29,339 nucleotides of DNA from a virus (lineage: Duplodnaviria > Heunggongvirae > Uroviricota > Caudoviricetes), in IMG/VR virus record IMGVR_UViG_2558860274_000008, positions 1-29,339 of that record. One strand, written 5' to 3'. The notes under the pieces were generated by a model. The model was given only the letters and a program-made list of their open reading frames with translations. It made no database searches and was not told the origin of the DNA. A program made the position numbers and the translations under genes. Below, one piece after another: positions 2,959 through 29,339 of this stretch (the stretch's first letter is position 1; each line of letters opens with the position of its first letter).

Positions 2959-3305
2959 TCTCACTCCCATCAGGTACCCGTATCTGGCTCGTTGCCGGCG
3001 TTACCGATATGCGTAAATCCTTCAACGGACTGGGAGAACAGGTACAACATGTGCTGAATGATAATCCCTTCTCCGGTCACCTGTTTATCTTCCGTGGCCG
3101 ACGGGGTGACACCGTCAAAATTCTTTGGGCTGATGCTGATGGTCTGTGCCTGTTCACCAAACGCCTGGAGGAAGGCCAGTTTATCTGGCCTGCGGTACGT
3201 GACGGCAAGGTATCCATTACCCGCTCGCAACTGGCAATGCTCCTCGATAAGCTGGACTGGCGTCAGCCAAAAACATCCAGCCGTAACTCACTGACAATGT
3301 TGTAA
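2955..3305 (+). CDS. tnpB: IS66-family accessory protein (orf2/TnpB-like)
   Basis: 116-aa ORF, paralog of 1-348, with its start overlapping the tnpA stop. Confidence 0.9.
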   Translation: MISLPSGTRIWLVAGVTDMRKSFNGLGEQVQHVLNDNPFSGHLFIFRGRRGDTVKILWADADGLCLFTKRLEEGQFIWPAVRDGKVSITRSQLAMLLDKLDWRQPKTSSRNSLTML

Positions 3306-3335
3306 AAAACTCCTGACCGCATTATAAAAACGGTC

Positions 3336-12665: not shown

Positions 12666-13562
12666 CTATGACTTGCTGTTTTCAGTAAGAGTCTTATCAT
12701 CCAAAGAATTTATTCTAGAAATTCTTTTTAACTCATTAAGATAATCAACCTCGTTTTCTAAGAACCAATGAAGAACTTTAGAATTGCCAAGTAATTTATT
12801 AATATATGACTGGATTATAACGAATTTCAACATATCTGAACCATACTCGGTTTGAAGCTTTTTCGTTTCTTCCGAAGTTGTTGCCATTTCTTGTTCCAGA
12901 CGAAGTATGGTTTTTTTTATGTCCTTTTTATAGGGAGTGTTTTTCCCTTTATTTACTATCATCGATGCCGGTGTTGCATCCAAGATGCTCATTGCAAATT
13001 TTTTACTATAATTATCAAAATTAATCATTGTACCGACTGCTTCAATTTGGCGAATTGGCTTCATTTTCCTCAAAACGTCAAATGTAGCCTTAGGTATAGG
13101 TTTATCAGAAAGTTTCGCAATTACACTTGGATCTATGCCGTTCATCACATTCGCTTTATCTTTTATGGCATCAACAGATATGCCCAAAGCAGCACTAAGT
13201 TTTTCAATTGATACTTTTGCCAGAGACTTAATTATCATTCTATGTTCTTCAACTACATTTATATGATTCACTTGTTTGTTAGGAGTGAAAGCATCATCTA
13301 TGCTCGAAAGTATACATGGAGCTTTTTCTATACCTAAGTCTTTTAAAGCCTCAACCCTTAAATGGCCATCAAGTATCTTAGTGACATCTTTATCTTTGTC
13401 ATAGAATACTATTATTGGTTCAATAATACCTAAGCTTTCGATAGAGGTAACTATTTGATGATATTTATGGCTTCGCTTTACGTTTTCTAATAATTCCTTA
13501 GATGGAATTAACTTATTAGTTTCCAGGTAAATAAAATTATCGCCAAAACGTATCTGAATCAT
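12666..13562 (-). CDS. ParB-like protein (ParB/Spo0J N-terminal-domain fold plus HTH), paralog 2
   Basis: 298-aa ORF with segment IIEPIIVFYDKDKDVTKILDGHLRVEALKDLGIEKAPCIL and HTH-like SIEKLSAALGISVDAI. Start overlaps the upstream paralog's stop (ATGA). AT-rich. Confidence 0.65.
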   Translation of the reverse strand: MIQIRFGDNFIYLETNKLIPSKELLENVKRSHKYHQIVTSIESLGIIEPIIVFYDKDKDVTKILDGHLRVEALKDLGIEKAPCILSSIDDAFTPNKQVNHINVVEEHRMIIKSLAKVSIEKLSAALGISVDAIKDKANVMNGIDPSVIAKLSDKPIPKATFDVLRKMKPIRQIEAVGTMINFDNYSKKFAMSILDATPASMIVNKGKNTPYKKDIKKTILRLEQEMATTSEETKKLQTEYGSDMLKFVIIQSYINKLLGNSKVLHWFLENEVDYLNELKRISRINSLDDKTLTENSKS

Positions 13563-14455
13563 TTTAATACCTCTTTGTTTACTGGGGTTAATATCTGAGA
13601 TGGTAGTTCTGAAAGATTCTCTTGTTCAAGTATATGTTGAAAGCTTTTATTCATCATTATGATGTTAAAAATCTCATTTACTATTAGTAGGTTGGTTTTT
13701 ATGAATTTTGAGTTGTTATAAACAGATTTATGTTCAGCGATACTATTTTCATAAAGCTCAATCAACTCCTCTGCAGTCATCCTTTTTGATGGTTTGTGAT
13801 AATAAAATCCGGCTGCTTTTGCACCTTTATTCCCAACTGTTCTTTGATTTAGAATGTGTTTTATCTTTATAATGTCCCGACTTTTTATTAATTTTTTATC
13901 ATATGCTTCGGTAAGAATATCTTGTGCTTCCTCAGTTTCACATCTTGCAAATTGCACTGCGAGATACAGAGGCAAATTACCCCGTTCGACTGCTGAGAGA
14001 AGTTTATGCTCTCCCTTATCAAGTAGCATATTAATACTGCTCACCCAGTTCGATGAATATCCAGTAATCTCACTTATTTCGGAGTCTGAAAGTCCTCTGA
14101 TTTTCATGTCTTTAATCACCTGTAATAACTCATTAGAACGTGGTCTTCTCCTTGCAATGTTTTCAACTAAACTCATAACGTAAGCATCTTCTTCTGATAC
14201 ATCTCTTATAATTGCTGGAATAATAGTTTCACCTAATGCAACGAGAGCCTCTATTCTCCCTTGACCACAAATTAAAGCATATTTGAAATCACCTTCATCA
14301 ATAGCTCTTACGCTTATTGGCTTGCTTAATCCTCTTTTTTTTATGCTTTCCTTTATTTCTTCATGCACTACCTTATTTCTTGTTCGTGGGTTAAGAAATT
14401 TTATTTTTGCAATCTCAATTTGAATTATTGGGAATTCATTTTTTTCAGGCAGCAT
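13559..14455 (-). CDS. ParB-like protein (ParB/Spo0J N-terminal-domain fold plus HTH), paralog 1
   Basis: 298-aa ORF with segment KPISVRAIDEGDFKYALICGQGRIEALVALGETIIPAIIRDVSEEDAYVMSLVENIARRRP that parallels the Spo0J/ParB boxes (…Y.LIAGERR.RA…G…VPAIVRD…ENLQR). The arginine-rich motif is degenerate (GQGRIEA). Overlaps the recombinase stop by 11 nt. Confidence 0.7.
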   Translation of the reverse strand: MLPEKNEFPIIQIEIAKIKFLNPRTRNKVVHEEIKESIKKRGLSKPISVRAIDEGDFKYALICGQGRIEALVALGETIIPAIIRDVSEEDAYVMSLVENIARRRPRSNELLQVIKDMKIRGLSDSEISEITGYSSNWVSSINMLLDKGEHKLLSAVERGNLPLYLAVQFARCETEEAQDILTEAYDKKLIKSRDIIKIKHILNQRTVGNKGAKAAGFYYHKPSKRMTAEELIELYENSIAEHKSVYNNSKFIKTNLLIVNEIFNIIMMNKSFQHILEQENLSELPSQILTPVNKEVLK

Positions 14456-16001
14456 ATAGTTCCCTCACTTTCATGCGAGTAATAATTTGTAGAAGTTTAT
14501 CAAGATTATCAAATCTATAGAGATCTAATCGAATGTTGTTTGTTTCCGTCATGCACATTTTATTATATTCGTTTTCAATCTTTGGTATGATATAAAAATC
14601 AAGAGGTGAAATATTTTGTGAATTCATTCGTATAACAATTGTTATGTCTGCTTTCTGTGAGTTATCAAACCGGACTTTCCATCTAAGTTTACCTGATTTC
14701 ATATGTATGCATTTAGTAACAAGGACGGAAATTAAAAACTCATCATTGATGTAAAGCATTGGGGCATATTTATACTCGTCTATATGACAGTTACTTTTTA
14801 AAATTTCACCCTTAAAATCCTCAATTATCTCTGAGTAAAATGATCTTAGTGCTTCATTTATTTTGAGATAGCTGTAATCATGTTCTGGCTTATAACCAAT
14901 CAAAGTATATGCTCTTAAAAGACCACCAAATCGGGTTCTATAAACAGAAGATGAAGGGCCTGTATCATCTTCATCAATGATAAAGCCTGATAGTTTTCCA
15001 TTAGATTCTAATTTTTGTTTTAGTTTTTCTAATAGATCTTCATTAGTCAAATGAATGGATCGGAGCTGAATTATTTCTTGAGCTTTATTGTATTTTTTCT
15101 TTGAAATAATAGGTTTATATGCCTTGTCACATCTAACCCATTCATGTTTGGGGTTTTTTACAAGCCTACTTTTTAATTTAGATGAGGTTTTGTTATATAT
15201 GTTGTTTCCAATATATTTTTCATTTGTCAAAATTTGATGTATTTTTGCACGAGTCCATAATGTTCCATTTTCTGCAGGTATGTTCTGTTCATTTAATCTC
15301 TCAGCAATAATGAATTCTGGGACGTTATTATCTATAAAGAGATCATATATTCTATTTACAATTTTTATTTCATTTTTTGGTCCCGGAATTAATATTACCC
15401 TATCTGTTTGAATACTCTTTCTTTTGCGGAAACTCAATATTTCTTTAGCTATGCCATTTTCGTCTACTAAAAGACGTCTCAGCCCATAACCAGCCATACC
15501 GCCTTGATGATAACCAAGCTTTATTAAATTTACTTGCCCTATAAATACCTTTTCAGATAGATTCCTGCTGTGATATGCAGCACTAGATCTTTTTATATTC
15601 AGTATAACAGAGGACTCTAAAGGGAAATCTTTAGTGGGTATAGGTTCGGAACAATATATAAGATCTACACCATTTCTCTCAAATAGAAAGGAATAATATG
15701 CCGCTTCATCACTATTTTGAAAACGACCAAAACGGCTCACATCATAAAATAATACAGCCTGTATATCTATTTTCTTTTGTTCTACATCGCTAAGTAACTG
15801 CTGCAAAGAATGCCTGCCTACGATACTGACTCCGCTCTTACCTGCATCATCGTAGGTATAAGCGATTTCCATATTGTTCTTTTCAGCATAATCTTTGATA
15901 TATTCGGACTGATTATGTAAAGAATATTGCTGATGGTCGGTAGACATCCTCAAGTACTGCGCGACCCTAACTCTATGATTTTTGTCATTTTCGCTAGCCA
16001 T
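14445..16001 (-). CDS. Large serine recombinase (resolvase/invertase-type catalytic domain plus recombinase domain)
   Basis: 518-aa ORF whose N-terminus (VAQYLRMSTDHQ...YDDAGKSG...LQQLL...DVSRFGR) matches the serine-recombinase catalytic-domain pattern, followed by a long C-terminal extension typical of large serine recombinases. AT-rich, with an SD before the ATG. Confidence 0.85.
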   Translation of the reverse strand: MASENDKNHRVRVAQYLRMSTDHQQYSLHNQSEYIKDYAEKNNMEIAYTYDDAGKSGVSIVGRHSLQQLLSDVEQKKIDIQAVLFYDVSRFGRFQNSDEAAYYSFLFERNGVDLIYCSEPIPTKDFPLESSVILNIKRSSAAYHSRNLSEKVFIGQVNLIKLGYHQGGMAGYGLRRLLVDENGIAKEILSFRKRKSIQTDRVILIPGPKNEIKIVNRIYDLFIDNNVPEFIIAERLNEQNIPAENGTLWTRAKIHQILTNEKYIGNNIYNKTSSKLKSRLVKNPKHEWVRCDKAYKPIISKKKYNKAQEIIQLRSIHLTNEDLLEKLKQKLESNGKLSGFIIDEDDTGPSSSVYRTRFGGLLRAYTLIGYKPEHDYSYLKINEALRSFYSEIIEDFKGEILKSNCHIDEYKYAPMLYINDEFLISVLVTKCIHMKSGKLRWKVRFDNSQKADITIVIRMNSQNISPLDFYIIPKIENEYNKMCMTETNNIRLDLYRFDNLDKLLQIITRMKVRELYAA

Positions 16002-16283: not shown

Positions 16284-17513
16284 TTATGCGGCAATAACTT
16301 TGCATTTTTGAGACGAAACATAGTCACTCCACCATTGCATGAGAACCACCCGTTCAGTGAGATACTCTGCACGATTGTAGGCTGCAATTATTTCATCTTT
16401 CTTCGAGTGGGCAAGGGCGGCTTCTAAGACATCAGTCCTAAACTTGCCAGACTCCTCAGCAGCCGTTCTAGCAATGGATCGCATACCGTGAGCTACAAGC
16501 TCACCTCCGAAACCCATACGGATTATGGCCGCATTAGCTGTTTGTTCATGCATGTGATTGAGTGGAGCTTTGATACTGGGGAACACCCACTCTCTATGCC
16601 CGCTGATGACTTTCATTAAATCCAAAACTCGCAAAGCTTCTTTGCTCAGTGGAACTTTGTGAGGCTTCTTCATTTTCATAAACTCCGCCGGGATGTTCCA
16701 CATGCCAGTTTCAATATCAATATCTGACCATCTTGTGCGAACAGCTTCACCTGGGCGAACCCATGTGAGAAGTTGCCACTCAATCAGTAGCCTTGTTTCC
16801 AAACGGATAGAAGCATTGTTTAGAGCAACCAAGAAGCGAGGGAGTTCGGAAGGGGGTAATGCTGGCATATTCTGTTTTTTTGGCTTGCTGAACCGTTGCC
16901 CCAGGTTGTCTGCCGGGTTGAATTCTATGAGTTCTTCTGTTGCTGCATAGCGGAAAATTTCATTCAGGCGGGATATGATGCGGCGAAGTGTTTCAAGGAC
17001 ACCTCGTTTTTCTATGGGTTCTAAATGCTGTTTAAGCATTTTAGGGCGAATCTCCTTAATTGGGGTATCACCCAATGTGGAAAAGATATTTCTCTCTAGG
17101 CTTCGCCAGATGTCGTTAGCATGATCTTGGGAGATGCCTGACGTTTTGACTTTCTCATCAAGCCACTTCTTGGCTACTGCTTGAAATGTATGTTCCGTGG
17201 CATCTTTCAGTGCATTGGCTTTTTGGTTGTTATGAACTTGGGGGTCTATACCATTTGTAAGCAACGACAAGTATTCATCACGTAAAGCTCGTGCCTTCGC
17301 AAGTGTAAGGTGAGGATAGGTTCCTAAGCTCACCTTAGTTCGCTTTTTGGTCACAGGCACTGCATATCTGAAATACCAATTTTTCTTCCCTCCCTTCGCC
17401 AGGGGAGCGATTCGCAACAGCAAACCATCGCCGTCAAAAAGGTTCACCTCTTTTTCGGCAGGTTTGGTGCTTTTGATTTCAGTGTCAGTGAGCTTCTTAG
17501 CGATTTTGGCCAT
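16284..17513 (-). CDS. int: P4-type tyrosine integrase
   Basis: Start placed at the internal Met (MAKIAKKLTDTEIK...), which has a GAGGG SD 8 nt upstream. C-terminal region has the tyrosine-recombinase R...H..R..Y pattern (AHGMRSIARTAA...AYNRAEYL). Sits next to a degenerate ssrA 3'-end repeat. Confidence 0.88.
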   Translation of the reverse strand: MAKIAKKLTDTEIKSTKPAEKEVNLFDGDGLLLRIAPLAKGGKKNWYFRYAVPVTKKRTKVSLGTYPHLTLAKARALRDEYLSLLTNGIDPQVHNNQKANALKDATEHTFQAVAKKWLDEKVKTSGISQDHANDIWRSLERNIFSTLGDTPIKEIRPKMLKQHLEPIEKRGVLETLRRIISRLNEIFRYAATEELIEFNPADNLGQRFSKPKKQNMPALPPSELPRFLVALNNASIRLETRLLIEWQLLTWVRPGEAVRTRWSDIDIETGMWNIPAEFMKMKKPHKVPLSKEALRVLDLMKVISGHREWVFPSIKAPLNHMHEQTANAAIIRMGFGGELVAHGMRSIARTAAEESGKFRTDVLEAALAHSKKDEIIAAYNRAEYLTERVVLMQWWSDYVSSQKCKVIAA

Positions 17514-17611
17514 GTTTGGGACCCTCGATTTTAGGACCCATCTTCGTGGGTCCCATTCAGGGTGCCATAACTCGTAGTTCTCAGCAATTCTCACTAGACT
17601 ACAATAGACGT

Positions 17612-18701: not shown

Positions 18702-19274
18702 ATGGAAAGCACAGCCTTACAGCAGGCCTTTGACACCTGTCAGAATAACAAAGCAGCATGGCTGCAACGCAAAAATGAGCTGGCAGCGGCCGAACAGGAA
18801 TACCTGCGGCTTCTGTCAGGAGAAGGCAGAAACGTCAGTCGCCTGGACGAATTACGCAATATTATCGAAGTCAGAAAATGGCAGGTGAATCAGGCCGCCG
18901 GTCGTTATATTCGTTCGCATGAAGCCGTTCAGCACATCAGCATCCGCGACCGGCTGAATGATTTTATGCAGCAGCACGGCACAGCACTGGCGGCGGCACT
19001 GGCACCGGAGCTGATGGGCTACAGTGAGCTGACGGCCATTGCCCGAAACTGTGCCATACAGCGTGCCACAGATGCCCTGCGTGAAGCCCTTCTGTCTTGG
19101 CTTGCGAAGGGTGAAAAAATTAATTATTCCGTACAGGATAGCGACATTTTAACGGCCATCGGATTCAGGCCTGACGCGGCTTCGGTGGATGACAGCCGTG
19201 AAAAATTCACTCCTGCGCAGAACATGATTTTTTCGCGTAAAAGTGCGCAACTGGCATCACGTCAGTCTGTGTAA
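18702..19274 (+). CDS. psu: P4 Psu-like protein (polarity suppression / capsid decoration)
   Basis: 190-aa ORF that is recognisably Psu-like from memory. Sits between the delta remnant and cos, as in P4. Confidence 0.8.
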   Translation: MESTALQQAFDTCQNNKAAWLQRKNELAAAEQEYLRLLSGEGRNVSRLDELRNIIEVRKWQVNQAAGRYIRSHEAVQHISIRDRLNDFMQQHGTALAAALAPELMGYSELTAIARNCAIQRATDALREALLSWLAKGEKINYSVQDSDILTAIGFRPDAASVDDSREKFTPAQNMIFSRKSAQLASRQSV

Positions 19275-19310
19275 AATTCCCCGAAAATCCGCCCGTTTTT
19301 ACTGAAAAAA

Positions 19311-19350
19311 GCCATGCATCGATAAGGTGCATGGCTTTGCATGCGTTTTC
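19311..19350 (+). terminator. Terminator-like hairpin after psu
   Basis: GCCATGCA-tcgataagg-TGCATGGC followed by TTTGCATGCGTTTTC. Confidence 0.5.
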
Positions 19351-19438
19351 ACGTCTCATTTTCTGTATACCAGGCCACGCCCGGCACGGCCTGAGCGTGT
19401 CAGTGCAACTGCATTAAAACCGCTCCGCAAAGCGGGCG

Positions 19439-19457
19439 GGCGAGGCGGGGAAAGCAC
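19439..19457. other. P2/P4-type cos site (19-nt cohesive-end sequence)
   Basis: GGCGAGGCGGGGAAAGCAC, matching the cohesive-end sequence I recall for P2/P4, in the expected position after psu. Confidence 0.75.
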
Positions 19458-19710
19458 TGCGCGCCGGGCTAAAGAATGGAAAATCTTTTCCTTGTACTGA
19501 GCATGCTTGTTGAAAACAGGTTAATAGGCCTCTCGGAGTATTGAATTGCGAGTTTTACTACAACTCTTGATGCTAATATATTGATTGTCTTAAAATAATT
19601 ACTGGCAATGAGGCTCGAAGTCAATGTTGCTATTTTTATTATGGATACGTTGAATACACAGAGTGGTCGCCTTCTTGTTATGCGATTAACTTTCAATTTA
19701 GGGGGGGAGA

Positions 19711-20592
19711 ATGGATTGGAATGTTTTTTTTAGTACTATTAGCCAGACGTCAGGTGCAATTGTCGGAATATTTTCAGCATTTCTAATAACTAAGATAATA
19801 TCTAATCAGTCTGATTTTTCAAGAATGAAGGAACGAGTGTCCTTTCTTATTAATAAGTCTAAAGCCTTGAGTTTAGAAGCGAACTCCAGATATTTTGATT
19901 GGTATAATAGACGAACGCGAGAGCGAGAATTGGATAAGTTAAAGGGTATGTTTGATGAAAGTGATGAGTTTTTATCCGCAGAGGAATATTATGAGAGGCT
20001 TGATTTTTCGCCGTTTGAATTAAGAGATGATGTCTTGGTGTACATACGCAATGCTATTGAGGCGCGTAAAGAGGAAGAAAAAAGACAGATAGGTTATTAC
20101 GGGATTATGCCCACTTTAAGAATGCCTGTAAGTATCTTGAGTAATGATGTCCAGGAAGAGTTCGAACTCATTGATGCTCTCAAAGTTAGGATTCTAGCAA
20201 ATATAAATGACATTATTTATGTTCATGACGAGATTGTAAAAGAAAAGTATGGTAAAAATCTGATAACAATCTCGATTGTTGCATCATCCCTTTTATTTAT
20301 ATTGGGCGTTATTTATCCGCTTAGTTTTATCCCTAAAGCTATTGGTGAAGATATTAACATTACTTTTATGGCATTTTTTGATGTTTTGTTTTCTATTAAA
20401 GGTTTTTTTCTTTCTTTGCTTGCCATTGTTTTTTTGAGTTTGATGTTAGCATTTCTATATATTAACATAACACTGCGATTTGAGAGTGAGGTAATATCAG
20501 AACTTGAATTCTATATGAATATAAGTGCCTATTCTGAATACTTTGGAAACGAGTATAAAAATAGTGTCCATTTAAAAGAGATGTCCGTGTAA
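19711..20592 (+). CDS. Hypothetical membrane protein (N-terminal TM helix, about 150-aa soluble region, two C-terminal TM segments); cargo in the P4-like cos-to-int slot
   Basis: 293-aa AT-rich ORF with a G-rich SD directly upstream. Hydrophobic segments at about residues 5-28, 187-208 and 217-250. No recognisable catalytic motif. Confidence 0.7.
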   Translation: MDWNVFFSTISQTSGAIVGIFSAFLITKIISNQSDFSRMKERVSFLINKSKALSLEANSRYFDWYNRRTRERELDKLKGMFDESDEFLSAEEYYERLDFSPFELRDDVLVYIRNAIEARKEEEKRQIGYYGIMPTLRMPVSILSNDVQEEFELIDALKVRILANINDIIYVHDEIVKEKYGKNLITISIVASSLLFILGVIYPLSFIPKAIGEDINITFMAFFDVLFSIKGFFLSLLAIVFLSLMLAFLYINITLRFESEVISELEFYMNISAYSEYFGNEYKNSVHLKEMSV

Positions 20593-20645
20593 TGAATTTA
20601 TTGAGGCCATTTCTTGGCCTCAATAAATGCTAAAGAGAGACGATT

Positions 20646-20819
20646 TTAAGGTATTTTTATTCCAACCTTAAACTCTTCGTTGTCTCTGAATTTTTCAAGT
20701 GATTCTCGTAAATAGATAGTTTGAATATCTGTGGGGATGAATTTTATCGCCATTCCGTCAAGGCATGTTTTTATATATTTACTAACGTCTTCAATATATT
20801 GATGGTGGTTATTTGACAT
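20646..20819 (-). CDS. Small hypothetical protein (57 aa) immediately downstream of int
   Basis: Not in the ORF track (below length cutoff). ATG preceded by AAGGAG at a 6-nt spacing. Convergent with the 293-aa gene. Confidence 0.4.
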   Translation of the reverse strand: MSNNHHQYIEDVSKYIKTCLDGMAIKFIPTDIQTIYLRESLEKFRDNEEFKVGIKIP

Positions 20820-20846
20820 TTAAAACTCCTTTGCCGTGCAATCTTT

Positions 20847-22058
20847 TTAAATCGCTTGCATGAGGAGGTGGCGATTGTGCACAAATTCCCCCCACCAATT
20901 CATCAAGTCTATACGTTGTTCTAGGTAAGTTGAACGATTGTATGCTCTGCGAACTTCATTTTTATCACTGTGAGCAAGTGCCGCTTCAATTACGTCCGGA
21001 TTAAAACCAGCTTCATTTAGCGCGGTACTTGCTATAGAACGTAATCCATGAGCAACAAGCTTCCCACCATAACCAATGCGCTTAAGTGCAGCATTAGCAG
21101 TCTGGCTATTCATTGGTTGTTTAGGATCATTCCTACTTGGAAAAATATGTTCACGATGAGCACTGATTGGCTTCATCACTTCCAGAATCTCTAATGCCTG
21201 AGAAGACAGTGGGACAATATGCTTGCGTTTCGCCTTCATCCGTTCGGCTGGAATCGTCCAGAACTTTGAATCGAGATCGATCTCTGCCCACCGAGCACCG
21301 GAGGCCTCAGAAGGGCGCACAATGGTCAGGAGTTGCCATTCAATTAGACAGCGAGTCGGAACAGACAGATTAGACATAACCAAAGAACGCATCAGCTTTG
21401 GTAATTCTTCTGGCCGGAGCGTCGGCATGTTTTGCTTTTTAGGTTTCTCAAAAGCCATCCCAATACCTGATGCTGGATTGGCATCAATCAGACCAGTGTT
21501 TACGGCATAAATCATTATCTCGTTAATGCGCTGCACCAGACGACGTACCGTCTCTAGCGCCCCACGTGCTTTGATTGGCTCAAGGGCTTCAACAAGTGTT
21601 CGGGCTTTGATTTGCTGAACTGGGATCTCACCGATGGCAGGGAATACATCTTTTTCTAGTGAACGCCAAATGTCTTTCGCGTAATCAGGGGTAACGCTTT
21701 TGCTTTTAAGCTGGAACCAGTTAGCGGCGACTGTTGAAAAAATACTGTCCAGTGCGATTTGCTGCTGTTCCTCTGCAATTTCAGCTTGAATTTGCGGGTC
21801 AATTCCGTTGGCTAACAAGGAAAGGTAATCCGCTCTTAACCGTCGGGCGTCAGCAAGTGAAAGGGCGGGGAAGGCTCCTAGCCCCATCATTGTTCGCTGC
21901 TTTGTTGCTGGACGTTGATAACGGAAACGCCATAACTTCTTACCGTTCGTTTTAACGAGCAGAAAAAGACCATCGCCATCATGCAACGTTAGATCCTTTT
22001 CTAACGCTTTAGCGCGCAGAACTTCTGTGTTGGTCAGGGGGCGTGTCGTTCTTGCCAC
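20847..22058 (-). CDS. int: P4-type tyrosine integrase
   Basis: 403-aa ORF with a GTG start preceded by GAAGGAG. N-terminus MARTTRPLTNTEV...DGDGLFLLV and a tyrosine-recombinase C-terminal pattern. Adjacent to the ssrA 3'-end repeat. Confidence 0.9.
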   Translation of the reverse strand: MARTTRPLTNTEVLRAKALEKDLTLHDGDGLFLLVKTNGKKLWRFRYQRPATKQRTMMGLGAFPALSLADARRLRADYLSLLANGIDPQIQAEIAEEQQQIALDSIFSTVAANWFQLKSKSVTPDYAKDIWRSLEKDVFPAIGEIPVQQIKARTLVEALEPIKARGALETVRRLVQRINEIMIYAVNTGLIDANPASGIGMAFEKPKKQNMPTLRPEELPKLMRSLVMSNLSVPTRCLIEWQLLTIVRPSEASGARWAEIDLDSKFWTIPAERMKAKRKHIVPLSSQALEILEVMKPISAHREHIFPSRNDPKQPMNSQTANAALKRIGYGGKLVAHGLRSIASTALNEAGFNPDVIEAALAHSDKNEVRRAYNRSTYLEQRIDLMNWWGEFVHNRHLLMQAI

Positions 22059-22080
22059 TTTGGCCGCTCCTTCATGAATT

Positions 22081-22128
22081 GGTATACGCGTTTAGGTATA
22101 CATCCTACCGTATACCTAAACGTATACC
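22081..22128. promoter_or_regulatory. Inverted repeat in the int upstream region
   Basis: GGTATACGCGTTTAGGTATAC (22081-22101) and GTATACCTAAACGTATACC (22110-22128) are near-perfect reverse complements. Confidence 0.45.
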
Positions 22129-22174
22129 AATAATCACTGGATTTAGCTGGATATCCTCGGACAACGGTAGACAC

Positions 22175-22207
22175 AAAAAAGCCCGCAGAGCTTGTGCCAT
22201 GCGGGCT
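22175..22207 (-). terminator. Rho-independent terminator (minus strand) just downstream of the ssrA 3'-end repeat
   Basis: AGCCCGCATGGCACAAGCTCTGCGGGCT followed by TTTTTTG on the minus strand. Confidence 0.65.
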
Positions 22208-22242
22208 TTCAGGATTTCTCCGGACGTATCCGGAAGAGCAAG

Positions 22243-22287
22243 TGGTGGAGCTGGCGGGAGTTGAACCCGCGTCCGAAATTCCTACAT
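22243..22287. repeat. Direct repeat of the ssrA 3' end (att core) between the P2-like and P4-like remnants
   Basis: 45-bp exact match to 28280-28324 (TGGTGGAGCTGGCGGGAGTTGAACCCGCGTCCGAAATTCCTACAT). Confidence 0.9.
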
Positions 22288-22411
22288 ACCATTTTTACTA
22301 TAATAAAAACAGTTATTTATTTTTTAAATCAGTATGTTAGTGTTATTTGGTGTTTCTCCGTTTTATGTGTTTTTAATGTTCTGCCGCCAAAGTGTCGCCA
22401 CTATTGCTGGC

Positions 22412-23599
22412 CTATCTAATAGGTGAATAATCAAATAAGCGATCCATACAAACTTCCAGTTTATAAAAGTCAGTTAATGGGTAAAGTCTGATTATGTCAC
22501 TATCAAAATCAGTAATGCCAGATAGCCTTTCTTTTCGAGCAAGAAATCTGATAGCTTTCCCCTGCTCAGATGTTTTAGGGATTGCATTCTGATACTCTAA
22601 TGTTTTTAAAACCTGCCATGAAACAGGTGGAGTAAAATCAAATAATGATGACAACCTTGGGCAAAAATCTTTTTGAGTCGTTTGTCTATATGTGGCTTTG
22701 GGGGGTAATACAACATTTATTGAAAGTTTTGAACCTAGACTTTTTTTCATTTTCGTTGATGAATAGGCTATGCCAGATATTGGAGATTGACCCCGTGTGC
22801 TTATCCACTGCATGAGTAAATTAGGTATTATATATTCTTGCGTAAAACTTGAGTTTTCATGTGTTTTTATATAGCTACATGAGAAAATTAAGGGCCAGAG
22901 AACCAAATACGAAGCTTTGATATAATTATTTGTTCTTAACTCTTCGCTGCTCCATTCTTTAGTATTGATTGAGGTTTTCAGTTGTGGAACAAAGTTAAGG
23001 ATTTTAGATTTAGTATCTTGTGATATGAATGAGGATATATATAGTTTATCAAAATCTGGTTTGTCCATTTCTTGCCAGCATACATATAGAGATGAACCTA
23101 GATATAAACAGGGGAGTCCCGCTACTGAGTAACGTTGAGCACTGACAAGGTGTCGGCAGGAAAATGGTATATGGAAAATATCTTCCCTGTTAAGTAATGG
23201 CTTGTCTGATTTGCGTACTCTATAGAGTGGTTGATCATAATTACATATTTCCTTAAGGGGGATTGTGATTCTTTGAATATGCTTATTAATAAGATTGTCT
23301 GAAAAAGTGTCATCGAAAATATCATATGCCTCTTTGATGTCACCCGCTAAAAACTCTTGAAGGCTCTCGGTTATTCCTAGTTGTATTTTTAATACTCGCT
23401 TTATTAGCAGATCAATATTAAGCCTGGTTTTGTTTTTAATTTTAAATTCATTTAAAAAATTAAGGTATTCATTGCAGCGAGAGTTAAAATCAGAAACGAT
23501 GTCACCTTTAGGTTTAAAAGGTGGCATTAAATCCTCATTACTATACAACTCATTCAGCATCATATTTAACTGAGTTTCAACATCTCTATCCTGTTGCAT
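22412..23599 (-). CDS. Hypothetical protein with a RES-domain-like region and an N-terminal extension of about 120 aa
   Basis: 395-aa AT-rich ORF starting 7 nt after the int stop. Segment PLYRVRKS...FHIPFSCRHLVSAQRYSVAGLPCLYLGSSLYVCWQE matches the RES-domain pattern. No adjacent small antitoxin-like ORF. Confidence 0.6.
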   Translation of the reverse strand: MQQDRDVETQLNMMLNELYSNEDLMPPFKPKGDIVSDFNSRCNEYLNFLNEFKIKNKTRLNIDLLIKRVLKIQLGITESLQEFLAGDIKEAYDIFDDTFSDNLINKHIQRITIPLKEICNYDQPLYRVRKSDKPLLNREDIFHIPFSCRHLVSAQRYSVAGLPCLYLGSSLYVCWQEMDKPDFDKLYISSFISQDTKSKILNFVPQLKTSINTKEWSSEELRTNNYIKASYLVLWPLIFSCSYIKTHENSSFTQEYIIPNLLMQWISTRGQSPISGIAYSSTKMKKSLGSKLSINVVLPPKATYRQTTQKDFCPRLSSLFDFTPPVSWQVLKTLEYQNAIPKTSEQGKAIRFLARKERLSGITDFDSDIIRLYPLTDFYKLEVCMDRLFDYSPIR

Positions 23600-23606
23600 T
23601 CTTTTC

Positions 23607-24623
23607 TCACTTTAATAAATTTAGTGGATTTTTAGTCACCGCGTCTTCTAAATGATCTGGAGAAAAATGAGCGTAGATCATCGTCATTTTTATATCCGCA
23701 TGTCCTAGAATATCGCGCAGCACCAGTATGTTTCCGCCATTCATCATAAAGTGGCTGGCAAATGTATGGCGCAGGACGTGGGTGCATTGGCCTTCCGGTA
23801 GTTCGATACCGGCCCGTTTTACCGCCCGTTCAAAGGCTTTTCTGCATGGTGTGAATAACTTCCCTCGTTTTTTGGGGAGTTCGTTGTACAGTTCCTGAGA
23901 AATAGGTACGGTTCGGTTTTTCTTGCCCTTTGTCTTGGTATAAGTTATACGGTATTTTGATAACTGATGACCCTGCAGGTTTTCGGCTTCACTCCAGCGC
24001 GCGCCTGTGGCTAAGCATATTTTTGCAATCAAAAGTAGGCTGGGATTTTGAGAATCAGCACAGGCATTCAGCAAGCGTTTTATTTCTTCCTGTGTCAGAA
24101 ATGCCAGTTCGCCCTCTGCAATTTTAAATGTTGGTAGACCGGCGAGTGGGTTGGGGGCGGACCAGTGGCCTAATTTTTTTAAAGTTCCAAAAACTGATGA
24201 TAGATTGCGTTGTTCAAGGTTTACTGTTCGAGGCTTAACCGGCGACATAAACACACCATCAATGTTTTTAACGTCACCTTTTAGTCGCGCTTCCCGATAC
24301 TTAGTGAAATCACCTGCTGTCAATTCAGAGGCTATGGGATCACCAAGTCCACCACAAATGATTTTTAATTTCGCCATTAAACGCTTGGGGTCAGCGAGAG
24401 TTCGACCATACAGGGAATACCACAGCTCAATTAATTCTGACAGGTGCCGCCGATCATCCTTTTCACCTAACCACGGTTTTTTGTTCACCTCTTCCATAGT
24501 GAAGCTTTCAAACGCAATGGCTTCGCCTTTCGTAGCAAATTGCTTACGTACGCGTTTGCCATTGCGTCCATTGGGATAGCACTCACACAACCATTTACCG
24601 TTTGGCTGTTTTCTGACAGTCAT
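23607..24623 (-). CDS. int: P2-type tyrosine integrase
   Basis: 338-aa ORF (MTVRKQPNGKWLCECYPNG...ICLATGARWSEAE...HVLRHTFASHFMMNGGNILVLRDILGH...MTMIYAHF), directly downstream of the repressor gene as in P2/186. Confidence 0.92.
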   Translation of the reverse strand: MTVRKQPNGKWLCECYPNGRNGKRVRKQFATKGEAIAFESFTMEEVNKKPWLGEKDDRRHLSELIELWYSLYGRTLADPKRLMAKLKIICGGLGDPIASELTAGDFTKYREARLKGDVKNIDGVFMSPVKPRTVNLEQRNLSSVFGTLKKLGHWSAPNPLAGLPTFKIAEGELAFLTQEEIKRLLNACADSQNPSLLLIAKICLATGARWSEAENLQGHQLSKYRITYTKTKGKKNRTVPISQELYNELPKKRGKLFTPCRKAFERAVKRAGIELPEGQCTHVLRHTFASHFMMNGGNILVLRDILGHADIKMTMIYAHFSPDHLEDAVTKNPLNLLK

Positions 24624-24625
24624 GT

Positions 24626-25258
24626 TTAGATACTCTTTATTACTTTGACTGCGCGCCCAATAACTTCCACATCATCAGCAGAGCACTCGAAAGACGCTTC
24701 ATCTTGATTTACTACAATCTTATTGCCGGGAATCCGCATGATTTTTGCAATAATAATCATTCCATCAATATTGATAAGCCAGAATCCATTGCTGACTTGT
24801 TTAACTGATTTATCGATGAGATAACAATCAGTAGGGGTTTCTAAGAACATCGATTCTTCATAATGTGCAGGTAATATGCTGTGGTCTAGAAAAATCTTTT
24901 CATCAATACGGAGTTTTCCATTCTCCAAGGTTCCTTTAGGAATAGATGGAGTTACGAGTTTGGATAACGGTCTAATCGCTAGTTTGTTCTCATTATGAGA
25001 ACTTTTTTCAGGCTCACATTCTTCTTTCATGCTTCCCTGTCCTGTTGCTAACCAAAGCAACGAAACACCAGTTTCTAGTGCGCACTGAATTATCCAGTCA
25101 GCAGGAAAGCTATCACGTAACACTCTGTTTGCCATAGTGCTTTTTGAGACATTCAGATGCTCGCTTAATGCCTGCTTAGTTGTGAATCCATAAGCCTCAA
25201 GCAGCCTCTCAATAGCTGCCTTACCTCCCGTATCGGAACCCATTCTGATGTTTAACAT
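24626..25258 (-). CDS. cI: Phage CI-type repressor (N-terminal HTH)
   Basis: 210-aa ORF with HTH region TKQALSEHLNVSKSTMANRVLRDSFP. Divergent from the cox-like gene, with a strong SD. Confidence 0.8.
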   Translation of the reverse strand: MLNIRMGSDTGGKAAIERLLEAYGFTTKQALSEHLNVSKSTMANRVLRDSFPADWIIQCALETGVSLLWLATGQGSMKEECEPEKSSHNENKLAIRPLSKLVTPSIPKGTLENGKLRIDEKIFLDHSILPAHYEESMFLETPTDCYLIDKSVKQVSNGFWLINIDGMIIIAKIMRIPGNKIVVNQDEASFECSADDVEVIGRAVKVIKSI

Positions 25259-25271
25259 TGGTAATCTCCAT

Positions 25272-25300
25272 TTGACAATCTTGAATCAAGATCGTAATGT
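25272..25300 (+). promoter_or_regulatory. Sigma70-like promoter for the rightward (cox-like) transcript with an embedded operator-like palindrome
   Basis: TTGACA (25272-25277), 17-bp spacer, TAATGT (25295-25300). The spacer contains the perfect palindrome ATCTTGA-A-TCAAGAT (25278-25292). Direct repeat CTAAAACG x2 lies at 25335-25354. Confidence 0.5.
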
Positions 25301-25379
25301 CTTCATGTCTCTTGATGTGAGATTTTAAGAGACGAGCTAAAACGAACTAAAACGCACACAAAGTAAGAGATACTGCACT

Positions 25380-25781
25380 ATGAGCAACGACATTTCAATT
25401 CGTGTACCAAAAGTGATGGCGACCCCTGCAGAGTTCGCGGAATGGGAAGGCCGATCTCGTGGTTCGGTATATCAAATGATTCACAATGGTAAACTTGCTA
25501 AGTTTTTGGAAAAAAAGGAAAAATCGAAAGACAGAGTATGTATACGTTACCTTGAGTACAAAAAGGAACAAGTCAGGAAAAACATGGGCCACCCGATCTA
25601 TTACCACGGTGAGCACCGCCACCGGATTGAGGCACCGACGCAGATCATCATTCAGACGCAGCCAGGACAAAGTGCGCAGGATATTGCGCGGGAGGTGGCA
25701 CGCCAGCTTGATGAACGTGAACGCAGGCTGAAGGCAAAAGCCAGGAGTAACTACAGCGATCAGGGGGGATACGACGCATGA
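25380..25781 (+). CDS. Cox/Apl-like HTH N-terminus continuous with the 3' end of the tail gene preceding U (probable deletion fusion)
   Basis: 133-aa ORF. N-terminus (..ATPAEFAEWEGRSRGSVYQMIHNGKL..) is excisionase/Cox-like. Its stop overlaps the U start (ATGA), as expected for the gene upstream of U in P2 (T). The junction is not precisely located. Confidence 0.5.
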   Translation: MSNDISIRVPKVMATPAEFAEWEGRSRGSVYQMIHNGKLAKFLEKKEKSKDRVCIRYLEYKKEQVRKNMGHPIYYHGEHRHRIEAPTQIIIQTQPGQSAQDIAREVARQLDERERRLKAKARSNYSDQGGYDA

Positions 25782-26263
25782 TGATGGTGCTGGGATTGTA
25801 CGTGTTTATGCTGCGCACCGTTCCGTATCAGGAACTGCAGTATCAACGCAGCTGGCGACATGCGGCAAACAGCCGGGTAAACCGTCGTCCGTCCACGCAG
25901 TTTCTGGGACCGGACAACGACATGCTGACGCTTTCTGGTGTTCTTATGCCGGAGATAACGGGCGGCAGGCTGTCGTTGCTGGCTCTGGAGCAGATGGCAG
26001 AACAGGGAAAAGCATGGCCCCTGATTGAAGGCAGCGGCACGATTTACGGCATGTATGTGATTGAGGGACTGAATCTGACTAAAACGGAGTTTTTCCGCGA
26101 CGGTATGCCGCGCCGGATTGAGTTCACCCTGTCGCTCAAACGGGTGGATGAATCCCTGTCCGATATGTTCGGTGATCTCAGTACGCAACTGAATAATCTG
26201 CAGGACACGGCAACATCTGCCTTAAGTGATATCAGTAAAACGGTGGGAGGGCTGCTGTCGTGA
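25778..26263 (+). CDS. U: P2 gpU-like tail protein
   Basis: 161-aa ORF (MMMVLGLYVFMLRTVPYQELQYQRSWRH...LGPDNDMLTLSGVL...) recognisable as P2 U from memory. Confidence 0.9.
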   Translation: MMMVLGLYVFMLRTVPYQELQYQRSWRHAANSRVNRRPSTQFLGPDNDMLTLSGVLMPEITGGRLSLLALEQMAEQGKAWPLIEGSGTIYGMYVIEGLNLTKTEFFRDGMPRRIEFTLSLKRVDESLSDMFGDLSTQLNNLQDTATSALSDISKTVGGLLS

Positions 26264-27360
26264 ATTTCAGCTCTGAACTGCTTAACAAAGGCAACAAAAC
26301 TCCCGCATTCAGCATCAGTATTGAGGGCAGGGATATCACCACTGTGCTGGATAACCGCCTGATGAGTTTGACTCTGACGGACAATCGGGGCTTTGAAGCG
26401 GACCAGCTTGATCTGGAGCTGGACGACGCCGACGGAAAAATCGTGCTGCCGCGCCGTGGTGCGGTCATTACGCTGGCGCTGGGCTGGAAGGGGCAGCCGC
26501 TTTTCCCTAAAGGGGCATTCACGGTGGACGAGATTGAACACACTGGCGCACCGGACCGCCTGACTATCCGGGCGCGAAGTGCTGATTTTCGGGAAACGCT
26601 GAATACCCGTCGTGAAAAGTCGTGGCACAAGACCACCGTCGGGGAAGTGGTGAAGGAAATAGCCGCGCGGCACAAGCTGAAGATGGCACTGGGTAAAGAC
26701 CTGTCGGATAAGCCCGTGGAACATATAGACCAGACCAATGAGAGTGACGGCAGTTTTCTGATGCGGCTGGCGCGCCAGTACGGTGCTATTGCGTCGGTGA
26801 AAAACGGCAATCTGTTATTCATCCGGCAGGGACAGGGCAAAAGCGCCAGCGGTAAACCTCTGCCGGTGATCACTATCACACGCAAGGACGGCGACAGTCA
26901 CCGCTTTACCCTGGCAGATCGCGGAGCCTATACGGGCGTAATTGCCAGTTGGTTGCATACCCGCGAACCCGCGAAGAAAGAAAGCACCACGGTGAAGCGT
27001 AAGTGCAGGACAGCAAAGCAGAAGAAAGAGCCGGAAGCGAAGCAGGGCGATTACCTGGTGGGTACGGATGAAAACGTGCTGGTACTTAATCGCACTTATG
27101 CCAACCGGAGCAACGCTGAACGGGCAGCGAAAATGCAGTGGGAACGCCTGCAACGCGGCGTTGCGTCATTCTCGCTACAACTGGCGGAAGGTCGGGCAGA
27201 TCTCTACACGGAAATGCCAGTGAAAGTCAGTGGCTTTAAACAGCCGATAGATGATGCGGAATGGACCATTACGACTCTGACACATACCGTCAGCCCGGAT
27301 AACGGTTTTACAACCAGTATTGAACTCGAAGTGAAGATTGATGATCTTGAAATGGAATGA
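26260..27360 (+). CDS. D: P2 gpD-like tail protein (late control gene D)
   Basis: 366-aa ORF overlapping the U stop. Gene order U-D-ogr. Confidence 0.9.
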   Translation: MNFSSELLNKGNKTPAFSISIEGRDITTVLDNRLMSLTLTDNRGFEADQLDLELDDADGKIVLPRRGAVITLALGWKGQPLFPKGAFTVDEIEHTGAPDRLTIRARSADFRETLNTRREKSWHKTTVGEVVKEIAARHKLKMALGKDLSDKPVEHIDQTNESDGSFLMRLARQYGAIASVKNGNLLFIRQGQGKSASGKPLPVITITRKDGDSHRFTLADRGAYTGVIASWLHTREPAKKESTTVKRKCRTAKQKKEPEAKQGDYLVGTDENVLVLNRTYANRSNAERAAKMQWERLQRGVASFSLQLAEGRADLYTEMPVKVSGFKQPIDDAEWTITTLTHTVSPDNGFTTSIELEVKIDDLEME

Positions 27361-27428
27361 ATTGTTCTCAATATTGATATTTTGTGTATCATTACAATGA
27401 TTCTGATAGCAAAGGTAGGGATCTGGAT

Positions 27429-27647
27429 ATGATGAATTGTCCGAAGTGTGGTCATGCGGCGCACACAAGGAGCAGTTTTCAAGTAACAGAAAGCACCAAA
27501 GAGCGTTACTGCCAGTGCCAAAATATTAACTGCGGGAGCACTTTTGTTACCCATGAAACAGTGGTCCGGTTTATTGTGACACCTGCATTGATTGCTACAG
27601 CCCCTCCACATCCATTGCCAGGTGGTCAGGGGCATATGAATTTTTGA
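27429..27647 (+). CDS. ogr: Ogr-type late transcription activator (zinc finger)
   Basis: 72-aa product from the internal Met (MMNCPKCGHAAHTRSS...ERYCQCQNINCGSTF...PHPLPGGQ) with a C-x2-C...C-x4-C pattern and P2 Ogr length. Confidence 0.9.
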   Translation: MMNCPKCGHAAHTRSSFQVTESTKERYCQCQNINCGSTFVTHETVVRFIVTPALIATAPPHPLPGGQGHMNF

Positions 27648-27652
27648 GAAAG

Positions 27653-27678
27653 AGAACCTGCTACGGCAGGTTTTTATT
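27653..27678. terminator. Bidirectional terminator hairpin between convergent ogr and the WYL/BRCT-like gene
   Basis: AACCTGC-tacg-GCAGGTT followed by TTTTTATT. Confidence 0.65.
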
Positions 27679-28156
27679 CATCTGGGATCTCACCCGTTTC
27701 AAGAAAATGTATAAAGCCAGGCTCATCTATGATGATTGTGCCTTTCATCCTGGCTGCCGATACTTTTGATGGGCCTGCATTGTAACCGCAACAGAGCATC
27801 TGAAGGCTTTGGGTTACAGAGGTTCTTACCGTTAATCCTTGTTCATTCGCCTTATCAACCAATCTTTCTTTATCTGCTTTCTTAAATCCGGTGAAGCACA
27901 CATCGAATGTATTTTTTTTCGGACCAGACTGCTTAGTGAGATGTGAGTAGTTTTCGGGGAGGAATGACGCGCATTCCTGAATGGCTTGTTCTGGTGAATC
28001 GTACTGTTTAAGAATGCGGTCTTTTCGGAAGGTTTTTATTCGATCGGTGTTCTTACAAATGCCCTGTATATGATTTTCGCTATAACTGATGCTCTGTATT
28101 GAGTGAACACCGATACGACCATTTGCATTGATGTAAACAAAGTGAAGTTCTTCCAT
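27674..28156 (-). CDS. Hypothetical protein with a WYL-like N-terminal region and BRCT-like C-terminal region; cargo between ogr and ssrA
   Basis: 160-aa ORF with AGAGG SD. N-terminal ..RIKTFRKDRI.. resembles the WYL-domain R.FR.DRI signature. C-terminal DVCFTGF....ERL...A...G..V...V......L..G...G.SK...A.....IIDE..F resembles a BRCT fold pattern. Confidence 0.55.
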   Translation of the reverse strand: MEELHFVYINANGRIGVHSIQSISYSENHIQGICKNTDRIKTFRKDRILKQYDSPEQAIQECASFLPENYSHLTKQSGPKKNTFDVCFTGFKKADKERLVDKANEQGLTVRTSVTQSLQMLCCGYNAGPSKVSAARMKGTIIIDEPGFIHFLETGEIPDE

Positions 28157-28279: not shown

Positions 28280-28642
28280 TGGTGGAGCTGGCGGGAGTTG
28301 AACCCGCGTCCGAAATTCCTACATCCTCGGTACTACATGCTTAGTCAGTCTTTACATTCGCTTGCCAGCTGCGGACGGACACGCCACTAACAAACTAGCC
28401 TGATTAAGTTTTAACGCTTCAACCCCAGGCAGGGCTTCCACGCGATCTCTTTTGGGTTTGACCTCTCTTGATCCCCGTCCTAAGAGCGGAGGCTAGGGAG
28501 AGAGGGCTCTAAGCAGGTTATTAAGCTGCTAAAGCGTAGTTTTCGTCGTTTGCGACTATTTTTTGCGGCTTTTTACGAGGCCAACCGCCCCTCGGCATGC
28601 ACCTTGGGTTTCGCAAATCCCGTCGAATCCAGAATCAGCCCC
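28280..28642 (-). ncRNA. ssrA: tmRNA (SsrA), 363 nt
   Basis: Reverse complement reads GGGGCTGATTCTGGATTCGACGGG...GCAAACGACGAAAACTACGCTTTAGCAGCTTAA (ANDENYALAA tag)...GGTTCAACTCCCGCCAGCTCCACCA, matching enterobacterial ssrA as I recall it. Confidence 0.95.
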
Positions 28643-28856: not shown

Positions 28857-29339
28857 TTAACGATGGGCGTTCTTCATGATACGCGCTTTATCCACCTGCC
28901 ATTCGCGCTCTTTGATATCAGAACGTTTATCGTGTTGTTTCTTACCTTTGGCGACGCCGATTTTTACTTTGCACCAGGCATTTTTCCAGTACAAGGAGAG
29001 CGCCACTACGGTATAGCCTTCGCGGTTTACGCGACCATAGAGAGAATCCAGTTCACGCTGGTTGAGAAGTAATTTGCGGGTACGAGTTGGATCGCACACT
29101 ACATGTGTGGAAGCCACAGCCATTGGCGTAATGTTAGCGCCAAACAGGAATGCTTCACCGTCGCGCAGAAGGACATAGCTGTCGCTAATATTGGCTTTTC
29201 CTGCGCGCAGGGATTTAACTTCCCAGCCTTGCAGGGCAAGTCCCGCTTCGAATTCTTCTTCGATAAAGTATTCGTGACGGGCGCGCTTGTTAAGCGCGAT
29301 GGTCGCTGAACCAGGTTTATGTGCTTTTTTCTTCGTCAT
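28857..29339 (-). CDS. smpB: SsrA-binding protein SmpB
   Basis: 160-aa ORF ([48 protein letters not shown]...) upstream of ssrA on the same strand. Start codon is at the window edge. Confidence 0.93.

Follow-up and report, generated by a model that had tools for sequence, protein, structure and literature searches.

A standalone RES-fold protein in the int-att slot of a 186/Fels-2-type prophage remnant, predicted to be an aRES-like NAD+-depleting effector

RES-domain enzymes vary in their chemistry: MbcT and NatT are phosphorylases, and ParT ADP-ribosylates the protein Prs. Canonical RES proteins are the toxins of type II toxin-antitoxin modules, in which a helix of the antitoxin plugs the active site (PMC11535050). 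The RES-Xre toxins (MbcT, NatT, P. putida Res, VPA0770 and ParT) have 140-250 amino acids (aa), and an Xre-type antitoxin always accompanies them. Standalone RES proteins in defence islands (aRES) were recently reported to protect E. coli from diverse phages (Osterman et al., January 2026 preprint, bioRxiv 10.64898/2026.01.28.702374). Here we analyse a gene for a 395-aa RES-like protein, located between the integrase gene (int) and an attachment site (att) of a prophage remnant, in a 29,339-nucleotide (nt) stretch of DNA (the window) from the IMG/VR virus record IMGVR_UViG_2558860274_000008 (Caudoviricetes), and compare it with both kinds of RES system.

During infection, aRES depletes nicotinamide adenine dinucleotide (NAD+), producing nicotinamide and ADP-ribose (ADPR)-1''-phosphate, and infected cultures arrest growth; phage protection with NAD+ depletion has been reported for three PF18870-type aRES proteins only, from E. 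coli UC5, K. pneumoniae and E. chengduensis (bioRxiv 10.64898/2026.01.28.702374). By definition, aRES combines the RES domain PF08808 with the Cys-rich N-terminal domain PF18870 (HEPN_RES_NTD1). Point mutations of predicted active-site residues are reported to abolish aRES defence, and the alanine mutants of that study are R182A, R184A, R215A, Y225A, E236A and S334A (bioRxiv 10.64898/2026.01.28.702374). The aRES system evades the common phage NAD+ repair pathway, as shown in January 2026, and phages counter it with a NARP1-linked phosphatase or with aRad1 proteins that block the active site (bioRxiv 10.64898/2026.01.28.702374).

The gene in the window and the predicted parts of its protein are as follows.

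22412..23599, minus strand: RES-protein gene, 395 aa, from the list of open reading frames (ORFs), with its stop codon at 22412-22414.
23249..23599, minus strand: N-terminal all-helical domain, residues 1-117, from the AlphaFold2 (AF2) model, with a conserved FLxGDIKxAY motif (Gly86).
22685..23248, minus strand: predicted RES (ADP-ribosyltransferase-fold) catalytic core, residues 118-305, with R127, R129, H143, R156, Y166, E177, Y279, S281 and N295.
22415..22684, minus strand: C-terminal region, residues 306-395, from AF2 secondary structure, with a predicted local distance difference test score (pLDDT) of 53-83.

The ORF begins with ATG (ORF list and translation), and its residues 125-177 hold the motif ..LYRVRKS..FHIPFSCRHLVSAQRYSVAGLPCLYLGSSLYVCWQE.. 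An initial annotation, made by reading the DNA alone, had given its position, its length, its start 7 nt after the int stop, its AT-richness (GC content 0.33-0.35, against 0.43-0.45 for int) and this motif, all of which were confirmed, with minus as the strand. We predict with high confidence that the gene encodes a catalytically competent RES-fold enzyme. On balance we favour, with some reserve, the reading that this enzyme is a self-contained, infection-triggered, aRES-like NAD+ depleter, carried by a 186-like prophage as cargo expressed in the lysogen.

The RES assignment is carried by profile comparisons. A family profile built from 99 diverse members (23% mean identity) was aligned by hhalign with 30 Pfam-verified RES proteins (74.6% probability, 172 columns, residues 118-300) and with the experimentally validated E. 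coli UC5 aRES (87.1% probability, E 4e-6). Among the same 99 relatives, 37 match Pfam RES PF08808 at E<=0.01 (best 6.3e-6); YopC of Bacillus phage SPbeta reaches 22.4 bits on PF08808, where the cut-off is 23.2, and gp33 of phage Cartapus matches Pfam RES at E 0.23. The three-dimensional fold is that of RES/ADP-ribosyltransferase (ART) proteins, with MbcT as the best structural match. The core profile aligned weakly with single RES sequences from neighbouring loci (3.6% for a RES protein of 160 aa with unaligned N-terminal motifs, 29% for locus L011); the alignment to RES is convincing only with a profile or with aRES. A spurious resemblance, the objection foreseen in the initial annotation, is not what these searches returned, as the core aligns both with Pfam-verified RES proteins and with aRES. 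The RES-like domain proposed there is borne out by the 37 relatives, the two hhalign probabilities and the fold, and its limits are corrected: it had been taken to end at residue 177 and runs to about residue 305. Since the core reaches this far and includes Ser281 and Asn295, the true extensions measure ~117 aa on the N-terminal side and ~90 aa on the C-terminal side.

Within the core, H143, R156, G161, P163, Y166, W175 and E177 are invariant across the 99 members, and residues including R127, R129, R149, S158, Y279, S281 and N295 are nearly invariant (>=90%). The aRES residues R182, R184, R215, Y225, E236 and S334 correspond in the hhalign alignment to R127, R129, R156, Y166, E177 and S281 of the ORF, the +10 and +11 spacings between active-site residues are identical in the two proteins, and aRES N349 maps to N295. 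The ORF residues R127/R129, R156, Y166, E177, S281 and N295 align with the invariant R, R, Y, E, S and N of RES proteins. The conserved residues of NatT are R23, R82, Y93, S184 and N193 (PMC11535050), and they follow the pattern seen in the ORF family. Conserved residues in register indicate that the catalytic machinery is intact.

These residues also bear on an alternative reading, in which the enzyme would, like ParT with Prs, transfer ADP-ribose to one particular protein or nucleic acid; it could still bring about exclusion or lysogenic conversion, without bulk NAD+ depletion. The variety of RES chemistry leaves room for such an activity, which we consider rather unlikely: the NAD+ phosphorylases NatT and aRES have the equivalent R/Y/E/S/N set at matching spacing, and the best structural match, MbcT, is likewise a phosphorylase.

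The AF2 model of the N-terminal domain places helices at residues 2-20, 34-55, 62-84, 88-99 and 102-110 (pLDDT 85-98), and the domain is conserved across the 99 members, among which no Pfam family recurs in this region. The sole Pfam match of the ORF, Plasmod_dom_1 (25.4 bits, residues 89-118), was judged spurious, being found in 1 of the 99 members, and is suspected to be a compositional artefact of the AT-rich gene. Identity of the N-terminal domain with HEPN_RES_NTD1 of aRES was rejected, as PF18870 is matched by 0 of the 99 members and hhalign leaves residues 1-117 unmatched. The C-terminal region consists of a conserved TPPVSWQVLKT strand/helix followed by three helices ending in LYPLTDFYKLE; it contains invariant columns among close homologs, and Y373 and F378 are nearly invariant across the family. 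Because antitoxin helices plug the active sites of canonical RES enzymes (PMC11535050), the flanking domains presumably act in autoinhibition and/or sensing of the trigger.

The ORF and aRES are alike in being standalone single-gene RES proteins of 300-600 aa (395 aa for the ORF) that lack an operonic antitoxin and occur in defence islands; their RES cores align, and all six residues mutated in the aRES study are conserved in the ORF. They differ in that residues 1-117 of the ORF form a Cys-poor helical domain distinct from the PF18870 that defines aRES, and in that core identity between the two is only about 15-18%. A true aRES, by comparison, aligns over its full length with the PF18870+RES family at 100% probability (hhalign). 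With no entry for B. subtilis, the aRES gene list did not capture YopC, and the ORF family appears to be absent from it. Judged by these alignments, the family is a sister of aRES with a different front domain, outside aRES as currently defined. The initial annotation had proposed a single-gene abortive-infection effector as plausible, and the experiments on this sister family support that proposal (bioRxiv 10.64898/2026.01.28.702374). The ORF differs from the RES-Xre toxins in its length of 395 aa, in its additional domains at both ends and in having no antitoxin gene beside it, either here or in 80 related loci. The ORF is therefore not a member of a RES-Xre toxin-antitoxin module, and the catalytic domain is what it has in common with both RES-Xre and aRES.

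The family is large, with 2,686 representatives at 50% clustering (E<=1e-3), of which 931 have E<=1e-30; most are 350-420 aa long and match from about profile position 15 to 340 or beyond. Close homologs of the ORF number 311. Family members occur in Proteobacteria, Bacteroidota, Bacillota and Planctomycetota, and a scan of GTDB species genomes gave 191 loci (Enterobacteriaceae, Aeromonas, Marinomonas, many Bacteroidota, Paenibacillus/Bacillus, Planctomycetota, Acidobacteria and others). The term 'orphan', applied to the protein in the initial annotation, is thus apt for its lack of an antitoxin and misleading otherwise.

Eighty species loci were kept for neighbour analysis, covering the ORFs within three genes on either side. 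The 461 neighbouring ORFs fell into 423 BLAST clusters, the largest of which comprised integrases (6 members), and no partner family, Xre included, recurred among them. A small same-strand ORF lies upstream in only 11 of 78 loci. The Pfam families found most often among the 148 immediate neighbours are Phage_integrase (8), TIR_2 (4) and ResIII (3), and the 25 most matched include no Xre-antitoxin family. In the window, too, the ORF list has no small helix-turn-helix (HTH) gene adjoining the ORF. The absence of an Xre-like antitoxin gene, asserted for this locus in the initial annotation, was accordingly upheld both beside the ORF and across its relatives. PADLOC (E<=1e-10) identified among the immediate neighbours type IV and type I restriction enzymes, PbeA, a ThsB-like TIR protein, PDC-S66, PDC-S21, DISARM DrmD, BrxH, bSEFIR and DpdE.

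Individual loci illustrate the same habit. On the Vibrio harveyi chromosome (L008 6001-7140) a family member forms a lone cassette in a superintegron; this cassette is flanked by ~30-codon ORFs from attC repeats, with NUDIX and acetyltransferase cassettes nearby. In Mariprofundus ferrooxydans (L011 4599-7152) a 383-aa family member adjoins a true aRES gene (HEPN_RES_NTD1 + RES, 418 aa), and the pair lies directly after a type I restriction-modification (R-M) operon and before a NucS-like gene, so that two different standalone RES proteins share one defence island. The Desulfobulbus member has a STAND-like ATPase as neighbour, the Providencia member lies in an AlpA/YfjT/antirestriction island, and another member has an FRG-domain neighbour in a cassette-like array. 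These contexts, together with the lack of a partner, suggest that the protein is self-contained and travels with mobile and defence genes. In Salmonella enterica, a P4-type integrase island beside the RES gene (L098 4022-6657) encodes a SIR2_2 protein and, after it, a DUF87 (HerA-like) ATPase; the pair would be another NAD+-targeting defence system directly beside the RES gene.

One context differs. In SPbeta, yopC (442 aa) is directly preceded by yopB, encoding a 75-aa Cro/C1-type HTH protein (HTH_26, 3.6e-17; L003 3402-5065), and this is the only context met that resembles a regulator/antitoxin pairing. It lends some support to a second alternative, in which the protein is a toxin that stabilises the prophage or island by addiction or post-segregational killing, and is neutralised by its own extra domains or in trans, for example by the repressor CI. 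The role of canonical RES proteins as type II toxins whose active site is plugged by an antitoxin helix (PMC11535050) and the retention of the gene, intact, in a heavily deleted prophage speak for it as well. CI itself was rejected as the antitoxin, because family members also occur as lone cassettes and in non-phage islands, and we regard addiction as distinctly unlikely.

The gene is intact and conserved. It matches PHROG phrog_7835 (function unknown) over its full length (E 3e-151), and its ratio of nonsynonymous to synonymous substitution rates (dN/dS) is 0.09 against the closest IMG/VR copy (a 96% identical pair), which indicates purifying selection. In 201 Salmonella contigs the gene is annotated only as a 218-aa protein (P0029) starting at Met178. 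A truncation of the gene in Salmonella was rejected: Salmonella enterica contigs (L097-L099, gene at 3001-3657) keep all 395 codons in an uninterrupted frame, with 99.7% nucleotide identity to the window. The 218-aa call results from a systematic error of gene calling, by which the N-terminal domain and half of the RES core are lost from view. That the ORF is a decaying or inactive relic, its likeness to RES having no functional meaning, might be argued from the deletion of the surrounding prophage, the AT-richness of the gene and the fragmentary annotation in those 201 contigs. Set against this are the artefactual nature of the 218-aa call over an intact frame, the dN/dS of 0.09, and catalytic residues that are invariant or nearly so (>=90%) over 99 divergent members; residue conservation, intact frame and dN/dS have already largely refuted the relic reading, which we hold to be extremely improbable.

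Upstream of the RES gene lie the following features.

23600..23606, minus strand: spacer between int and the ORF, gaaaaga, 7 nt, from reading the sequence and a terminator scan.
23607..24623, minus strand: tyrosine integrase, 186/P2-type (Pfam Int_N 1.4e-28, Phage_integrase 3.2e-25).
24626..25258, minus strand: CI repressor, heading the leftward cI-int-RES gene string (Pfam Phage_CI_repr 1.5e-30, Phage_CI_C 2.1e-30).

The TGA stop codon of int, the seven bases gaaaaga and the ATG of the ORF follow one another directly. A pattern scan of 22000-25500 found no terminator-like site between int and the ORF; the sole minus-strand site in this interval is at 22193-22179, just past a fragment of the transfer-messenger RNA (tmRNA) gene ssrA. 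Without an intervening terminator, co-transcription or translational coupling with int is likely, and the gene is likely co-transcribed with cI-int.

This arrangement is relevant to a third alternative, in which the gene serves the lytic or counter-defence programme of its carrier phage, for example through host NAD+/ADPR signalling. The gene is borne by the active phages Cartapus, RE-2010, SopEPhi and SPbeta, and phages encode many NAD+/ADPR-handling proteins (PMC9503650). It nevertheless belongs to the leftward cI-int string, outside any early or late lytic operon, many family members reside in non-phage defence islands and integrons, and ARTs with NADase activity are reported to be under-represented in phage lytic repertoires (PMC9503650), all of which makes this reading very improbable. 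The enterobacterial phage homologs (RE-2010 gp01, the SopEPhi orf and Cartapus gp33) are 43-46% identical to the ORF over most of its length and occupy the same slot, after int and beside attP; Cartapus gp33 is annotated 'putative RES protein, NAD+ binding domain'. YopC belongs to a different phage type and is 30% identical (E 3e-33).

The initial annotation had placed the gene in a variable cargo position, as opposed to the conserved prophage backbone. This was examined in 80 IMG/VR prophage contigs whose integrases are 75-96% identical to that of the window, by scoring the first ORF after int. The RES family fills the slot in 20 of these contigs, and an unrelated 343-373-aa family with a multi-pass hydrophobic N-terminus in 17. 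A 207-222-aa family occupies it in five loci and a 503-513-aa family in two; two singletons, of 308 aa and 264 aa, occur in one locus each. The 264-aa cargo (L078 5044-5838) is dCTP-deaminase/dUTPase-like (Pfam DCD 1.5e-13) with a C-terminal membrane segment. In others the slot is empty, with a P4-type integrase coming next or no ORF at all. Near-identical int and cI accompany different slot contents in ssrA prophages of E. coli, either a homolog of 401 aa (46% identical) or an unrelated protein of 222 aa. RES proteins share only 48-63% identity alongside int proteins that are 90-93% identical. Prophages with near-identical int thus hold unrelated genes or nothing at this place, as the annotation had supposed, and the slot contents together with the dN/dS of 0.09 point to exchangeable cargo under purifying selection. 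That the RES gene is variable cargo is, in our view, very likely.

The slot resembles the hotspots of P2 and P4 in its fixed position between conserved backbone features and in its mutually exclusive, rapidly exchanged AT-rich genes; it differs in that the other int-att cargo genes match no known defence family. Rousset et al. reportedly located P2 hotspots at tin/old and Z/fun. In the parts of Rousset et al. 2022 that were searched (PMC9122126), the prophage hotspots named are psu-int, for P4-like satellites, and cI-int, for Vibrio K139-like phages; an int-att hotspot of 186-like phages is not described, and the terms 'attL' and 'attR' do not appear.

In the mechanism we propose, the protein would be made in the lysogen at low level together with CI and Int and would be kept inactive, the N-terminal helical domain and/or the C-terminal helices presumably holding the enzyme off. 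Infection by another phage would activate it. The RES core would then consume NAD+, most probably splitting it by phosphorolysis into nicotinamide and ADPR-1''-phosphate, as MbcT, NatT and aRES do. The infected cell would stop growing and the invader could not replicate, amounting to abortive infection. We infer that NAD+ is the substrate, and likewise which product is formed, what triggers the enzyme, what the flanking domains do and that the protein acts against phage.

Several observations weigh against an aRES-like NAD+ depleter. The ORF protein itself has no Pfam RES match at E<=0.1 and falls short of the PF08808 gathering threshold, and it reaches no threshold in NCBIfam or PADLOC scans. 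Searches of PDB chains with the single sequence, full-length profiles and a RES-core-only profile returned no RES protein, the only matches being designed helical bundles on the N-terminal domain. In the AF2 model, the loop bearing R156 (residues 152-161) has a pLDDT below 50. Because RES chemistry varies, the substrate and product of the ORF cannot be read from its sequence. The share of immediate neighbours matched by PADLOC is ~1/10, a figure that lacks a matched control. PADLOC gave no match for representatives of five alternative cargo families; as no alternative cargo is a recognised defence gene, the slot itself is no argument for defence. The literature on YopC, Cartapus and RES with P2-like phages yielded no functional study of the ORF family.

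The prophage carrying the gene is bounded by copies of the ssrA 3' end, and contains further features.

22243..22287, no strand given: att repeat, the copied 3' end of ssrA, bounding the remnant beside the RES gene (exact 45-nt direct repeat with 28280-28324).
25380..25781, plus strand: cox::tape-measure fusion, 133 aa, a single ORF with a PHROG excisionase match at residues 1-51 and a tape-measure C-terminus match at residues 81-133.
25778..26263, plus strand: putative gpU, labelled from size and position, as the gpU-like gene among Cartapus gp28-gp32.
26260..27360, plus strand: putative gpD, labelled from size and position, as the gpD homolog among Cartapus gp28-gp32.
27384..27647, plus strand: ogr (Pfam Ogr_Delta 1.5e-20).
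27674..28156, minus strand: BRCT-like 160-aa gene between ogr and ssrA (weak BRCT match, E 1e-3).
28280..28642, minus strand: intact tmRNA gene ssrA (ARAGORN; Rfam RF00023, 295.8 bits), its 3' 45 nt forming the second att copy at the far end of the remnant.
28857..29339, minus strand: putative smpB, a 160-aa ORF past the tmRNA gene, named from its translation and its usual position beside ssrA.

The att repeat that the initial annotation had noted beside the ORF proved to be an exact 45-nt repeat of the ssrA 3' end, with 0 chance matches in 100 shuffles. The same gene order, ...T-U-D-ogr-[BRCT-like gene]-att-[RES homolog]-int-cI-cox, is found in the intact phages Cartapus and RE-2010. In the window, the cox::tape-measure fusion marks the deletion of most prophage genes (replication, lysis, head and most of the tail), and cI-int-RES and U-D-ogr are kept. 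The ~6 kb between the repeats is a deletion remnant of a 186/Fels-2-type prophage. The initial annotation spoke of a P2-type integrase; the phage is 186-like and not P2 sensu stricto. Across att from the RES gene, the BRCT-like gene may be a second att-proximal cargo gene; Cartapus gp32, annotated 'putative exonuclease', has the same size and position and a weak BRCT match as well.

To the left of the att repeat lie a P4-type integrase (20847..22058), two genes without assigned function, and psu. This end of a P4-like satellite (18702-22058) comprises psu at 18702-19274 (Pfam Psu 1.2e-88) and the P4-type integrase at 20847-22058, which bracket the AT-rich ORFs 19711-20592 (plus strand, 293 aa, with a hydrophobic C-terminal half) and 20646-20819 (minus strand, 57 aa). 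Neither ORF has a match in Pfam, NCBIfam, PHROG or PADLOC, and their location in the psu-int hotspot (Rousset et al. 2022) makes the pair candidate defence cargo. Further left, in tandem downstream of ssrA, the window contains two IS66 transposases (398-1936 and 3336-4949), a complete type I R-M system (hsdR 5035-8274, hsdS 8333-9526, hsdM 9523-11070), a very AT-rich module (GC ~0.30-0.36) with two ParB/RepB-like proteins (12666-14455) and a large serine recombinase (14445-16001), and a second P4-type integrase (16284-17594). With these elements in series beside it, ssrA hosts a tandem array of integrative elements.

We suggest tentatively, at somewhat below even confidence, that the ORF family could be a second lineage of standalone RES defence proteins with an architecture of its own, in which the N-terminal domain and C-terminal helices would form a new phage sensor or autoinhibitor, and that the int-att junction of 186/Fels-2-like prophages could be an unrecognised defence hotspot whose other cargo families, at least five in number, would be new anti-phage genes. 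As the family escapes the aRES definition and the thresholds of PADLOC and Pfam, RES-based immunity may be undercounted in current surveys. The two families, with the same catalytic core and different front domains, lend themselves to comparing how RES effectors detect infection. The int-att junction of these prophages, which are very common in Salmonella, E. coli and Klebsiella, is a place for finding more cargo genes, and prophage-borne systems of this kind shape phage susceptibility in clinically relevant Enterobacteriaceae.

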